DNA of 3,913 nt, taken from a virus (lineage: Duplodnaviria; Heunggongvirae; Uroviricota; Caudoviricetes). The translations under genes were made by a program, and so were the position numbers. Below are positions 773 to 3,913 of the stretch, piece by piece. The stretch lies in the IMG/VR virus record IMGVR_UViG_2675903368_000014; one strand, written 5' to 3'. The notes beneath the pieces are model-generated. The model made no database searches. It was not told the origin of the DNA and was given only the letters and a program-made list of their open reading frames with translations. How positions within the stretch are numbered: the first letter of the stretch is position 1; each line of letters opens with the position of its first letter.

Positions 773-852
773 CAACCACTGAATGCATTTTTCTGGCAGC
801 GGGCTTCATATTCTGTGTGCTTATGCTTGCCGACATGGGACTTGTTCAATGA
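769..852 (+). CDS. Possible 27-aa hydrophobic micro-ORF (MTTTECIFLAAGFIFCVLMLADMGLVQ), translationally coupled on both sides
   Basis: ATG 769-771 overlaps the orf63 stop as ATGA, and its own stop TGA 850-852 overlaps ATG 849-851 of the next ORF as ATGA. A purine-rich stretch (GAGAGAGA, about 754-761) lies upstream. It is below the length cutoff of the ORF track and could be chance. Confidence 0.3.
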   Translation: MTTTECIFLAAGFIFCVLMLADMGLVQ

Positions 853-1064
853 CACCTCAGCAAGAAAACGCCCTTCGCAGTATTGCCCGTCAGGCTAATT
901 CTGAAATCAAAAAAGCCAGACAGCAGTTTCCGGATAAAAACGTCGATGACATTTGCCGTAGCGTACTGAAGAAGCACCGCGAAACGGTAACGCTGATGGG
1001 ATTCACACCGACTCATTTAAGCCTGGCGATCGGCATGTTAAACGGCGTCTTTAAGGAACGGTGA
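849..1064 (+). CDS. Hypothetical small early protein, 71 aa from ATG 849 (93 aa if ATG 783 is used); occupies the lambda orf61 position but does not match its 61-aa size
   Basis: ORF track frame 783..1064. The internal ATG 849 has GGGA (837-840) about 8 nt upstream and is ATGA-coupled to the preceding micro-ORF. Stop TGA 1062-1064. Product MTPQQENALRSIARQANSEIKKARQQF... is hydrophilic and not recognised. Confidence 0.5.
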   Translation: MTPQQENALRSIARQANSEIKKARQQFPDKNVDDICRSVLKKHRETVTLMGFTPTHLSLAIGMLNGVFKER

Positions 1065-1162: not shown

Positions 1163-1384
1163 ATGGCAGACATCATTGATTCAGCATCAGAAATTGAAGA
1201 ATTACAGCGCAACACAGCAATAAAAATACGCCGCCTGAACCACCAGGCTATATCTGCCACTCATTGTTGTGAGTGTGGCGATCCCATAGATGAGCGAAGA
1301 CGCCTGGCCGTTCAGGGTTGTCGGACTTGTGCAAGTTGCCAGGAGGATCTGGAACTTATCAGTAAACAGAGAGGTTCGAAGTGA
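1163..1384 (+). CDS. orf73: TraR/DksA-family C4 zinc-finger protein, 73 aa (lambda Orf73-like host-transcription modulator)
   Basis: Translation MADIIDSASEIEELQRNTAIKIRRLNHQAISATHCCECGDPIDERRRLAVQGCRTCASCQEDL... carries the C-x2-C-x17-C-x2-C motif (Cys35, 38, 56, 59) with the same spacing as F-plasmid TraR. Length is exactly 73 aa. Stop TGA 1382-1384. Confidence 0.85.
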   Translation: MADIIDSASEIEELQRNTAIKIRRLNHQAISATHCCECGDPIDERRRLAVQGCRTCASCQEDLELISKQRGSK

Positions 1385-1536
1385 GCGAAATTAACTAGAA
1401 GCCAAAGATAAAATCATCGCTGAGCAGGAGAAAATCGCTAACGGAGAAAAGACAGTAAGTCAGTATATGAAAACCGCATAATATCATCAGATAAAAATCG
1501 ATCGTAAAGCGAAATATTAATACCAGAATAAACGAG

Positions 1537-1560
1537 TCGAGGTAAATTATATTACCTCGA
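1537..1560. repeat. Perfect 9-bp inverted repeat with 6-nt spacer (TCGAGGTAA-ATTATA-TTACCTCGA); possible terminator of the minus-strand gene, or a dimeric operator-like site
   Basis: Positions 1537-1545 are the exact reverse complement of 1552-1560. It lies about 35 nt downstream of the minus-strand gene stop (1595-1597). On the minus strand it is followed by CTCGTTTATTCTGG, a weak T-tract; on the plus strand it is followed by A-rich sequence. Confidence 0.35.
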
Positions 1561-1594
1561 TAAATTAACTAAAACTTGCCCGCTATATACTATC

Positions 1595-2197
1595 TCATTC
1601 AGTATCATCACGCGCGGTCTGTGCATATGTTACTACCGCACCTAATGTATTAATTTTCTTTTCAACATAGATAATATTATCGTACTCATAATTGCCATAC
1701 GGATAGCAAATGCGAATATTCTCATGTAGATCGGGGTCATCCACCTCAGCTCCAGAACAACTTTTTGAACTACCGGAAGTATACCGATACGGTGCAACAT
1801 AAGACGATGTCTCTCCAGGCAAAAAATAAGTTAGTGTTGTAAGGGGTATAATCAGAAAAAATCCAGCAAATATGCACATCCCTGCATAAACCTTAAGGTA
1901 TGCTGACAGACTCTTCCAGCCGCTTTGTTTTACTATCCCCTTCTTAACCCAAAACAGAGATAACAGAAAAGCTATTCCCATGCTAAACAGAATGTAATAG
2001 TGGGATATACTCTGATTAAGAAACGTGACCCTGTAAATATCTGCCCGCCACCAGAAGAAAAAGAAAATAAAGATCAGGCCTGAAACTGTCATGCAAATCA
2101 AATAAGGATACGAATCTTTTTTCATGTTTAGCGCCCATAAAATTTTTCCTGCCCCGGACAAATTTACCATCCATTTTTTGCGCAGAAAATAGCTCAT
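1595..2197 (-). CDS. Hypothetical inner-membrane protein, 200 aa, three predicted TM helices plus a Tyr/Cys-rich C-terminal domain of about 74 aa; candidate moron
   Basis: Longest ORF in the AT-rich segment and opposite in strand to all flanking phage genes. An in-frame TAA lies immediately upstream of ATG 2195-2197. Hydrophobic stretches are PYLICMTVSGLIFIFFFFWW, ISHYYILFSMGIAFLLSLFWV and YAGMCIFAGFFLIIPLTTLTYFL. No strong Shine-Dalgarno is present; alternative starts are Met10 (2168-2170) and Met25 (2123-2125). Confidence 0.65.
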   Translation of the reverse strand: MSYFLRKKWMVNLSGAGKILWALNMKKDSYPYLICMTVSGLIFIFFFFWWRADIYRVTFLNQSISHYYILFSMGIAFLLSLFWVKKGIVKQSGWKSLSAYLKVYAGMCIFAGFFLIIPLTTLTYFLPGETSSYVAPYRYTSGSSKSCSGAEVDDPDLHENIRICYPYGNYEYDNIIYVEKKINTLGAVVTYAQTARDDTE

Positions 2198-2369
2198 TAC
2201 TTACTGCACAATAATACACAAAATTGCGTAAATTTTTTGCATGGATTTTAGCTCTTTCAGCCGACGTTTAAGGGGTAAATAGCATTTCCTAAAAGCAACT
2301 GCACCAACCCAACAGAATGAGCTACCGCTTACGTTGAGAGCAAAAAAGTGTATAGCAGCAATGAACAGC

Positions 2370-2400
2370 ATCCTCGCACTGACGAGGATTTCTTTTATCT
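2370..2400 (+). terminator. Candidate intrinsic terminator (7-bp stem, T-rich tail)
   Basis: ATCCTCG (2370-2376) pairs with CGAGGAT (2383-2389) around loop CACTGA, followed by TTCTTTTATCT (2390-2400). It is oriented for + strand transcripts leaving the AT-rich segment, about 40 nt upstream of the 55-aa ORF start. Confidence 0.4.
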
Positions 2401-2439
2401 GAACTCGCTACGGCGGGTTTTGTTTTATGGAGATGATAA

Positions 2440-2607
2440 ATGCACTTCCGAGTCACAGGTGAATGGAATGGAGAACCATTCAACAGAGTTATCGAAGCAG
2501 AGAACATCAATGACTGCTATGACCACTGGATGATATGGGCGCAGATAGCACATGCAGACATAACCAATATTCGAATTGAAGAACTGAAAGAACACCAAGC
2601 CGCCTGA
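2440..2607 (+). CDS. Hypothetical small protein, 55 aa (MHFRVTGEWNGEPFNRVIEAENINDCYDHWMIWAQIAHADITNIRIEELKEHQAA)
   Basis: ATG 2440-2442 is preceded by GGAG (2429-2432) at 7-nt spacing. Stop TGA 2605-2607 lies inside the loop of the downstream terminator hairpin. Same strand as xis/int. Below the ORF-track length cutoff; hand-translated. Confidence 0.5.
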   Translation: MHFRVTGEWNGEPFNRVIEAENINDCYDHWMIWAQIAHADITNIRIEELKEHQAA

Positions 2608-2622
2608 TGGCGGCTTTTTCTT
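2597..2622 (+). terminator. Intrinsic terminator immediately upstream of the pI element
   Basis: 8-bp stem AAGCCGCC (2597-2604) pairs with GGCGGCTT (2609-2616) around loop TGAT, followed by TTTCTT (2617-2622). The reverse strand lacks a T-tract, so it is unidirectional. Confidence 0.6.
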
Positions 2623-2665
2623 GCGTGTAATTGCGGAGACTTTGCGATGTACTTGACACTTCAGG
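2621..2665 (+). promoter_or_regulatory. pI-type cII-activated int promoter region with cII recognition repeat TTGC-N6-TTGC
   Basis: TTGC (2621-2624), GTGTAA, TTGC (2631-2634) lie directly 5' of the xis ATG (2647). This is the known arrangement of lambda pI, whose transcript starts inside xis and so yields Int without Xis. The -10 and start site are not precisely assignable by eye. Confidence 0.7.
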
Positions 2666-2865
2666 AGTGGAACGCACGCCAGCGACGCCCAAGAAGCCTT
2701 GAAACAGTTCGTCGATGGGTGCGCGAATGCAGGATATTCCCTCCTCCGGTTAAGGATGGAAGAGAGTATCTGTTCCACGAATCAGCGGTAAAGGTTGACT
2801 TAAATCGACCAGTAACAGGTAGCCTTTTGAAGAGGATCAGAAATGGGAAGAAGGCGAAGTCATGA
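2647..2865 (+). CDS. xis: Excisionase Xis, 72 aa, lambda-type
   Basis: Translation MYLTLQEWNARQRRPRSLETVRRWVRECRIFPPPVKDGREYLFHESAVKVDLNRPVTGSLLKRIRNGKKAKS is recognised as lambda Xis. The 23-nt overlap with int (2843-2865) matches lambda. Confidence 0.93.
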   Translation: MYLTLQEWNARQRRPRSLETVRRWVRECRIFPPPVKDGREYLFHESAVKVDLNRPVTGSLLKRIRNGKKAKS

Positions 2866-3913
2866 GCGCCGGGATTTACCCCCTAACCTTTATATAAGAA
2901 ACAATGGATATTACTGCTACAGGGACCCAAGGACGGGTAAAGAGTTTGGTTTAGGCCGAGACAGGAGGATAGCAATCACTGAAGCAATACAGGCCAATAT
3001 TGAGTTATTTTCAGGACACAAACACAAGCCTCTGACAGCGAGAATCAACAGTGATAATTCTGTTACGTTACATTCATGGCTTGATCGCTACGAAAAAATC
3101 CTCGCCAGCAGAGGAATCAAGCAGAAGACACTCATAAATTACATGAGCAAAATTAAAGCAATAAGGAGGGGGCTGCCTGATGCTCCACTTGAAGACATCA
3201 CCACAAAAGAAATTGCGGCAATGCTCAATGGATACATAGACGAGGGCAAGGCGGCGTCAGCCAAGTTAATCAGATCAACACTGAGCGATGCATTCCGAGA
3301 GGCAATAGCTGAAGGCCATATAACAACAAACCCGGTCGCTGCCACTCGCGCAGCAAAATCAGAGGTAAGGAGATCAAGACTTACGGCTGACGAATACCTG
3401 AAAATTTATCAAGCTGCAGAATCATCACCATGTTGGCTCAGACTTGCAATGGAACTGGCTGTTGTTACCGGGCAGCGAGTTGGTGATTTATGCGAAATGA
3501 AGTGGTCTGATATCGTAGATGGATATCTTTATGTCGAACAAAGCAAAACAGGCGTAAAAATTGCCATCCCTACAACATTGCATGTTGATGCTCTCGGGAT
3601 ATCAATGAAGGAAACACTTGATAAATGCAAAGAGATTCTTGGCGGAGAAACCATAATTGCATCTACTCGTCGTGAACCGCTTTCATCCGGCACAGTATCA
3701 AGGTATTTTATGCGCGCACGAAAAGCATCAGGTCTTTCCTTCGAAGGGGATCCGCCTACCTTTCACGAGTTGCGCAGTTTGTCTGCAAGACTCTATGAGA
3801 AGCAGATAAGCGATAAGTTTGCTCAACATCTTCTCGGGCATAAGTCGGACACCATGGCATCACAGTATCGTGATGACAGAGGCAGGGAGTGGGACAAAAT
3901 TGAAATCAAATAA
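2843..3913 (+). CDS. int: Tyrosine site-specific integrase Int, 356 aa, lambda-type
   Basis: Translation MGRRRSHERRDLPPNLYIRNNGYYCYRDPRTGKEFGLGRD... is recognised as lambda Int. By my residue count the catalytic residues sit at canonical positions: R212, K235, H308, R311, H333 and nucleophile Y342 (..MASQYRDD..). Stop TAA 3911-3913 is the last codon of the window. Confidence 0.97.
   Translation: MGRRRSHERRDLPPNLYIRNNGYYCYRDPRTGKEFGLGRDRRIAITEAIQANIELFSGHKHKPLTARINSDNSVTLHSWLDRYEKILASRGIKQKTLINYMSKIKAIRRGLPDAPLEDITTKEIAAMLNGYIDEGKAASAKLIRSTLSDAFREAIAEGHITTNPVAATRAAKSEVRRSRLTADEYLKIYQAAESSPCWLRLAMELAVVTGQRVGDLCEMKWSDIVDGYLYVEQSKTGVKIAIPTTLHVDALGISMKETLDKCKEILGGETIIASTRREPLSSGTVSRYFMRARKASGLSFEGDPPTFHELRSLSARLYEKQISDKFAQHLLGHKSDTMASQYRDDRGREWDKIEIK

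Follow-up and report, generated by a model that had tools for sequence, protein, structure and literature searches.

Which function has a single membrane protein gene that is read against the early-left (pL) operon of a lambdoid phage? The question is raised by 3,913 nucleotides of DNA of a virus of the Caudoviricetes (IMG/VR record IMGVR_UViG_2675903368_000014). This whole stretch is called the window in the following, and its plus strand was recognised from the list of open reading frames (ORFs) and from Pfam and PHROG matches as the distal end of a lambdoid pL operon. Between a TraR-like gene and the genes ORF55-xis-int, a membrane protein gene occupies the minus strand at positions 1595..2197, antisense to the genes of pL direction. 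A first-pass annotation of this DNA had read it as a moron, a candidate for exclusion or defence or for lysogenic conversion. The gene is real and protein-coding and is under strong purifying selection. It is the cargo of a self-contained, horizontally mobile accessory unit at window positions 1488-2262, a 'reverse moron'. As to the function of its product, exclusion of superinfecting phages is tentatively put forward.

Coding sequence and translation start

The ORF was present exactly as first annotated, with 200 codons from an ATG start and without interruption in the window. DNA comparison revealed the same ORF intact and with zero insertions or deletions (indels) in the phages 434, 2B8 and mEp332, and homologues at 42-78 % identity have a length of 169-180 amino acids (aa). 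A frameshifted pseudogene, first suggested by the split annotation in 2B8, was rejected as an annotation artefact because the DNA has no indel. The ratio of nonsynonymous to synonymous substitution rates (dN/dS) over 176 codons was 0.10 against L021, a copy in a P2-like E. coli prophage, 0.08 against L017 and 0.14 against L012, hence the ORF codes for a protein. By part, the ratio was 0.076 for the C-terminal domain versus 0.12 for the transmembrane (TM) part.

Translation starts most likely at Met25 of the ORF (window position 2125), which gives a product of 176 aa instead of 200. The conserved coding sequence then covers 1595..2125 on the minus strand, with the stop codon at 1595-1597. The in-frame extension of 24 codons before it (2126..2197, minus strand), including FLRKKW, is probably promoter and 5' leader and not translated. 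Relatives at 42-78 % identity all begin at Met25 with MKK(D/Y)SYPYL. Outside DNA of the 434 type, the in-frame upstream extension meets a stop within 1-14 codons and contains zero start codons. Among 31 near-identical 200-aa alleles, 9 of the 24 residues of the extension were polymorphic versus 30 of the remaining 176 (p=0.027), a density about twice that of the core, and several natural alleles are frameshifted within the extension with the core unbroken. In addition, the promoter-like block described below lies inside the extension: Met1 (2197) is upstream of the -35-like element, while Met10 (2170) and the TTG start of the 434 record (2161) fall into the spacer and the -10 hexamer. Read as a promoter, this block supports the Met25 model independently of the protein evidence. 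The 200-aa model of the first-pass annotation, with its basic N-terminus, is therefore probably wrong. Deposited phage annotations disagree among themselves, with 188 aa from TTG, 200 aa or two fragments, and none uses Met25.

In copies of the 434 type the true product could still be the 200-aa form from Met1, or a 188- or 191-aa form, whose N-terminal tail would be basic and cytoplasmic. In 434, 2B8, mEp332 and E. coli prophages the frame of the extension is open, the 200-aa form is annotated by RefSeq, and read-in transcripts from upstream could include Met1. We consider such a longer product improbable in view of the lack of the extension in all other family members, the conserved -35 and -10 elements inside it, the retention of the core in extension-frameshifted alleles, the denser polymorphism and the conflict of three phage annotations on the start.

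Promoter-like block, repeats and terminator candidate

The promoter-like block consists of an extended -10-like element, TGgTAAATT (2161..2169, minus strand), which does not vary among the aligned upstream regions of lambdoid and P2-like copies, and a -35-like hexamer, TTTTCT (2184..2189, minus strand), located 17 bp upstream of the -10 hexamer. The hexamer was invariant in 6/6 aligned sequences; its match to the consensus is weak (3/6). Related TG-extended -10 forms were present in L012-14 and in a chromosomal copy of Cedecea. We infer from these elements that a sigma-70 promoter of its own drives the gene, and the transcript is predicted to begin near window position 2154. Such a promoter would make transcription independent of pL, so that the protein could be made in the lysogen. 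Two homopolymer tracts occur in this region, an A6 tract (2174-2179, minus strand) in the 17-bp spacer and a G4 tract (2152-2155) near the point where transcription is predicted to begin. Natural alleles with a frameshift in the N-terminal part, e.g. P0022 and P0027, imply changes in tract length, and a spacer change from 17 to 16 bp could alter the promoter strength.

Further upstream, conservation marked three direct TTGTGCA-like repeats (TTACGCA, TTGTGTA, TTGTGCA) in a 10-bp phase at 2204..2231 on the minus strand. Relative to the predicted start of transcription, their centres lie at approximately -53, -63 and -73, and the P2-like copies L018 and L021 contain them in exact form. The pattern of the repeat pair is unlikely to occur by chance, with 0.06 occurrences expected in the window. 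None of the consensus sites of DnaA, OmpR, PhoB, PhoP, TorR and MarA gave a convincing fit. The last two repeats overlap the 'CII box' of the 434 record (window 2208-2221), which had been annotated from the consensus alone. As they resemble the CII recognition pattern TTGY-N6-TTGY, the repeats might allow CII from an infecting lambdoid phage to induce the gene, an infection-sensing promoter that we regard as very improbable.

At the other end of the gene, the terminator scan found a hairpin candidate 35 nt past the stop (1537..1560, minus strand) with a 9-bp stem and a 6-nt loop, followed by CUCGUUUAUU. RNA folding showed the terminator hairpin, with a z-score of only -1.8 for the 81-nt stretch. 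The homology with the P2-like copy L021 spans this candidate.

A unit shared by lambdoid and P2-like prophages

As noticed in the first-pass annotation, the gene lies in AT-rich DNA and opposite to the pL genes from exo to int: the GC content is 33-41 % across 1400-2400 and 45-53 % in the flanks. The region 1400-2440 shares 99.7-99.8 % identity with the phages 434 and 2B8 and 98.7 % with mEp332. In other lambdoid phages (933W, lambda imm21, DE3 and many Stx phages) the match to the window ends at approximately 1397 and resumes at approximately 2344, with ea22-like genes in between. These homology breaks delimit a segment of the 434/2B8/mEp332 type (1398..2343) in the slot that is used by ea22-like genes elsewhere. 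Among 50,697 phage records, the only carriers were 434 (two records), 2B8 (two records) and mEp332.

Part of this segment recurs in another phage lineage. Blastn aligned window positions 2262..1488 with 76 % identity over 778 nt to L021 and positions 2258..1627 to the P2-like copy L018; P2-like prophages of Salmonella matched over a similar span. The span shared with L021 reaches from 137 nt upstream of Met25 to approximately 107 nt past the stop; the unit of approximately 775 bp (1488..2262) comprises the putative promoter region, the gene and the terminator candidate, and the homology with the P2-like copies stops shortly beyond these elements. The alignments indicate that lambdoid and P2-like lineages exchange a single accessory unit together with its promoter region. 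Distinct composition, promoter-like block, terminator candidate, patchy presence and the copy in P2-like prophages together make the moron reading well supported at the sequence level. This half of the first-pass interpretation has stood, whereas the evidence for its other half, exclusion or defence, is circumstantial only.

Protein architecture and topology

A Kyte-Doolittle scan identified three hydrophobic segments at residues ~30-52, 64-85 and 98-127 in the numbering of the 200-aa ORF. A full-length AlphaFold model, for which 18 family sequences served as input, had a predicted local distance difference test score (pLDDT) of 83.7 and presented three long helices, a beta domain behind them and a short strand in loop 1. 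The three hydrophobic stretches of the first-pass annotation were thereby recovered by hydropathy and by modelling. All parts are encoded on the minus strand. TM helix 1, residues 31-50 (2048..2107), is a hydropathy peak and corresponds to AlphaFold helix H5-29 in 176-aa numbering. TM helix 2, residues 64-84 (1946..2008), follows the conserved loop WWRxxIYRVTFL, and TM helix 3, residues 104-126 (1820..1888), follows a K-rich loop predicted to be cytoplasmic; both are supported by hydropathy and AlphaFold. From the three hydrophobic helices, a location in the inner membrane is predicted.

The C-terminal domain of approximately 74 aa (1598..1819) forms the beta domain of the model, and modelled alone it gave a small five-stranded beta-barrel with a pLDDT of 87. 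Loop 2 has five K/R and zero acidic residues, while the C-terminal 74 residues contain 6 basic and 12 acidic residues. By the positive-inside rule this charge bias suggests an N-in, C-out topology with loop 1 and the barrel on the periplasmic side, and the periplasmic placement of the C-terminal domain proposed earlier fits these counts. The predicted cytoplasmic parts are confined to about 5 N-terminal residues and a loop of about 19 residues; the barrel is the sole sizeable soluble domain. Its two Cys residues, already pointed out in the first reading of the sequence, are invariant family-wide, as are the motifs CSGA and ICYPxGxY. The barrel is probably disulphide-bonded via this Cys pair.

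Searches for related proteins and folds

The search of 5.8 billion proteins yielded 73 relatives, all enterobacterial and all without a name. A profile search of 1.84 billion cluster representatives yielded 61 relatives, nearly all with the same architecture of 166-189 aa. The annotations were everywhere hypothetical or 'putative membrane protein'. For the protein, Pfam and NCBIfam had zero matches and the defence-protein models of PADLOC-DB v2 no family at E values up to 1. When the PDB sequences were searched with the family profile, no match fell below E 0.49. The full AlphaFold model matched nothing specific in the PDB and a viral structure library (Foldseek/BFVD: best E 0.0095, TM-score not above 0.31). 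A confident match to a characterised family was thus obtained in none of Pfam, NCBIfam, PADLOC, PDB and BFVD. The zero matches in Pfam and PADLOC agree with the earlier view that the protein is not RexB, SieB, Lom, Bor, Cor or a holin.

PHROG 1416, a family of unknown function, matched residues 113-200 only; the partial match is probably due to truncated gene calls, e.g. a coding sequence of 49 aa in 2B8. The 3,074-aa protein P0177, the single large match of the profile search with E 8.5e-8 in nine stretches, was rejected as a homologue. What matched was a Cys-free motif of 21 residues at about 5 bits for each copy, and the score was inflated by the tandem repetition of identical copies, a repeat artefact.

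Distribution of the family

The homologues in E. coli (78 % identity) and Salmonella (70 % and 57 %) are all located between the portal gene (gpQ) and the replication gene A (gpA) of P2-like prophages. This interval is an anti-phage defence hotspot of P2, where old and tin reside in P2 itself (Rousset et al. 2022, PMC9122126). In this slot, noted for its defence genes, the family is enriched. Table S5B of that study lists as 'System #4' a single 181-aa protein with '3 TM', no Pfam hit and 470 occurrences, the fourth most frequent entry of the P2 hotspot. BLASTP aligned the window protein to the System #4 protein with 51 % identity over 168 aa (E 1e-56), and the two have the motifs YSYPYL, WWR..Y.ITYL, YFLPG, SKSCSGA, ICYPYG and ALGAVVTYA in common. 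The family motifs were not found in the tables of cloned and tested systems of the same paper; the family had therefore been catalogued by Rousset et al. (2022), not assayed. They were also not found in the DefensePredictor supplements. A functional study of any family member was not found by searches with accession, locus tag ECs0804 and topic. On these comparisons, the family appears to have been noticed once before, as an uncharacterised line of a supplementary table, and would belong to no known family without being categorically new. A 2026 follow-up reported solely unknown genes at the locus for 19 % of the P2-like phages, and in the equivalent hotspot of P4 satellites 6 of 8 random loci of unknown function were defensive.

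The 434-type allele was detected in 915 of 5,426 complete E. coli genomes (~17 %), always on the chromosome and in all but one genome with at least 95 % nucleotide identity. In the two genomes examined, it resides within a lambdoid prophage at the ybhC/attB-lambda site. The gene is intact, as ECs0804, in prophage Sp3 of O157:H7 Sakai (L027), in which int and bet are pseudogenes. In the ybhC prophage of O157:H7 (L022, FRIK944; L027, Sakai) int and bet are lost or broken and lpxR has been inserted, with the small early-left neighbours intact.

A conserved partner gene was not present across the contexts read. In the P2-like Salmonella sequences L012, L013, L017 and L020, two small co-oriented hypothetical genes of 81 and 119 aa occupy the space from the portal gene to the homologue, approximately 500-750 nt upstream of the latter. 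They are missing from L018 and L021 and are hence not obligate partners.

Proposed function and alternative explanations

We propose, with less than even confidence, that the protein acts alone as a superinfection exclusion factor at the periplasmic face of the inner membrane, an interpretation guided by analogy. Made from its own prophage promoter and independently of pL, the protein would insert N-in/C-out with loop 1 and barrel in the periplasm. There the barrel would bind those proteins with which an incoming phage penetrates the membrane (its tape-measure or ejection proteins) or mask an inner-membrane entry factor. Genome delivery would be blocked and the cell not killed. Action as a single protein is suggested by the lack of a conserved partner gene, and a periplasmic site of action by the small cytoplasmic mass together with the strongest selection on the extracytoplasmic domain. 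The candidacy for exclusion draws on the slot in the P2 defence hotspot, the listing as System #4, the 6 of 8 defensive loci in the P4 satellite hotspot, the predicted periplasmic topology, the retention in the decayed Sp3, the occurrence in 915 of 5,426 genomes and the precedent of SieA of phage P22. A step further, and somewhat more doubtful, the protein may be the founder of a new family of single-protein exclusion factors on the periplasmic side, in which a disulphide-bonded barrel of OB-like type intercepts genome delivery and which moves as a unit of promoter, gene and terminator.

Several observations weigh against this proposal. The Shine-Dalgarno sequence before Met25 is weak (TGGG), and the invariant block TTTTCT-17 bp-TGnTAAATT at window 2189-2161 scored under the threshold of a generic promoter scan. 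Sequence or fold similarity to known exclusion proteins was not found, nor were phenotype, transcript or topology data for family members in the accessible literature. The P2 hotspot also carries non-defence cargo, with StbA/StbB as its commonest entry (PMC9122126). Divergent relatives are lone chromosomal genes in Enterobacter mori, Klebsiella, Cedecea and two further contigs, metagenomic or other, and neither phage nor defence genes neighbour them in the contexts read. In consequence, the family need not be a defence family; a defence role is plausible on circumstantial evidence and weakened by these chromosomal relatives.

They are also the first argument for the next explanation, that of an envelope protein for lysogenic conversion or host fitness that has nothing to do with phage defence. 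It would alter membrane physiology, e.g. in stress tolerance, in resistance to bacteriocins, antimicrobial peptides or contact-dependent toxins, or in the modulation of a transporter, and phages would carry it for its benefit to the lysogen. In E. mori (L005-L008 7085-8510) a co-oriented LysR-family regulator gene has its stop 16 nt before the start of the homologue, an arrangement that suggests co-transcription and a resident, non-phage role there. Other divergent members are placed among small stress and biofilm genes such as YmgB and Pmp3. The StbA/StbB cargo of the P2 hotspot is compatible with such a role, and retention in a decayed prophage is expected of a gene useful to the host. However, the closest relatives (57-78 %) are all in the P2 defence hotspot, no domain indicates a transport, enzymatic or immunity function, and the inner-membrane location speaks against direct contact with an animal host. 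Altogether, a fitness role is possible, though rather unlikely.

A membrane effector of abortive infection is improbable. Its helices would oligomerise and depolarise the membrane on infection, a mechanism put forward for RexB and the TM effectors of CBASS, Thoeris and retrons. TM proteins of known systems are thought to be suicide effectors (Rousset et al., PMC9122126), and the protein is small, with several TM helices and a place in a defence hotspot. Yet no context read had a conserved neighbouring sensor, the protein has almost no cytoplasmic mass for sensing, the barrel is more conserved than the helices, as the dN/dS values of the two parts tell, and PADLOC had no match.

A role in the phage's own cycle, with CII switching the gene on via TTGY-N6-TTGY during the establishment of lysogeny for a membrane change in infection or integration or for a tuning of lysis, is quite improbable: in its favour are the CII-box consensus in the 434 record, a pRE-like spacing that can be drawn to a weak -10 (AGCTAT) and the conservation of the repeats, but repeats and gene also occur in P2-like prophages, which are not known to encode a lambda-type CII, and in a prophage remnant unable to grow, TTGY-N6-TTGY is expected by calculation about six times by chance per 48-kb genome, both half-sites here are TTGT while the three CII sites of lambda read TTGC, and most lambdoid phages are without the gene, which is thus dispensable for growth.

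Comparison with known systems

The exclusion proposal can be compared with several known systems. System #4 belongs to the same family as the window protein, and the homologues at 57-78 % identity share its gpA-gpQ slot. The window copy differs in its position, a variable slot in the lambdoid early-left region near xis/int instead of the P2-like gpA-gpQ interval. Also in the gpA-gpQ slot are old and tin, which with fun/Z are the exclusion genes for lysogenic conversion of P2. Like the homologues, they are stand-alone genes in a variable slot, with proteins unrelated to the family by PADLOC and Pfam. Old acts in the cytoplasm as an ATPase-nuclease, and Tin is soluble.

The functional precedent is SieA of phage P22, which sits in the inner membrane with three TM segments and prevents the delivery of DNA (PMC10883804); it serves as the working model for how such a protein could act. 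SieA has 162-164 aa in comparison to 176 aa of the window protein; both are products of a single gene with three predicted TM segments and an inner-membrane location, the latter predicted for the window protein. SieA is expressed in the prophage from its own promoter, and the window gene would be likewise. In sequence the two are apart: hhalign of the family profile to SieA gave a probability of 0.2 %, and the C-terminal motif FxRYPxEAxxFNK of SieA types A-C, predicted to be cytoplasmic, is not in the window protein. SieA is also without a beta-barrel domain. The sieA genes lie between the homologues of gene 16 (ejection) and gene 9 (tailspike) in P22-like phages, whereas the contexts of the family are lambdoid early-left, P2 gpA-gpQ and chromosomal.

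Morons of the HK97/HK022 type offer a parallel at the level of the gene: an extra gene with own promoter and terminator, both putative for the window unit, and atypical composition, present in some relatives only. HK97 gp15 (product of gene 15, 62 aa), which carries the annotation of a moron product, is an exclusion protein located in the membrane; with an hhalign probability of 1.3 % it is unrelated in sequence to the family. The window unit differs from the HK97 morons by its antisense orientation to the surrounding operon and by being common to two phage lineages.

In its domain plan, the window protein resembles short NfeD proteins (YbbJ, PF01957), which have few N-terminal TM helices and a small OB-like barrel in about 150-180 aa. 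An NfeD-like viral protein was among the weak fold matches. NfeD gave zero Pfam match, hhalign to E. coli YbbJ a probability of 0.1 %, and a partner gene of the SPFH/stomatin (Band 7) type was found in none of the contexts read. Unlike NfeD, the window protein has a barrel predicted to be periplasmic and conserved Cys residues. The work on SNIPE identified the injection site at the inner membrane, with ManYZ and the tape-measure protein, as a target of defence. The window protein is not of the SNIPE family, as it is without a nuclease domain.

Neighbouring genes and further features of the window

On the plus strand, gene annotation assigned the 3' end of exo (1-429), orf60a/DUF1317 (420-608), orf63/DUF1382 (581-772), the DksA/TraR zinc-finger gene, named TraR-like above (1163-1384), xis (2647-2865) and int (2843-3913). 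PHROG matches added a PHROG 303 gene ending at 1064 and ORF55/PHROG 676 (2440-2607). For the gene at 783-1064 (plus strand) the longest ORF has 93 aa; phage records annotate a 72-aa form only, with a start at 849. The first 46 residues of the 93-aa form and the 72-aa form match different PHROG families (phrog_303, phrog_26061), hence the start of this gene is uncertain. ORF114, located between ORF55 and xis in phage 434 (L001 3708-4188), is missing from the window (2607-2647), which thereby resembles mEp332, 2B8 and E. coli prophages and not 434 itself. The 434 record also carries, beyond attP (L001 5944-6041) and thus outside the window, a gene for an NleC-like type III secretion effector zinc metalloprotease adjoining the attachment site.

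Terminator-like hairpins in pL direction were found on the plus strand at 2370-2389, 2401-2420 and 2597-2616. The first matches 'tL4' of the old 434 record M60848; the last follows ORF55 and scores on the opposite strand too. In total, window 1350-2650 contained 7 terminator-like sites versus 1.2 expected. A 56-aa ORF upstream of the membrane protein gene (2201-2371, minus strand) is annotated in mEp332 and, as 'putative membrane protein', in 434, but is likely to be spurious. Most of this ORF falls beyond the unit common to P2-like prophages, it runs over both the promoter block and the tL4 hairpin, and RefSeq has no annotation for it in E. coli prophages.

Implications

For cloning of the gene, the corrected 176-aa model from Met25 matters. 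The unit is a clear case of accessory cargo that, together with its promoter, appears to have been swapped between unrelated temperate phage lineages. The candidate is widespread, well-defined and directly testable, and would come as no surprise to the specialist. If the protein blocks phage entry, it would be among the commonest prophage-borne barriers in E. coli, from a family missed by the current libraries for defence annotation, with a bearing on host-range prediction and phage therapy. It would then add a mechanistically distinct member to the few understood exclusion proteins of the inner membrane (P22 SieA, HK97 gp15, T4 Imm), distinct because its working domain would be periplasmic.

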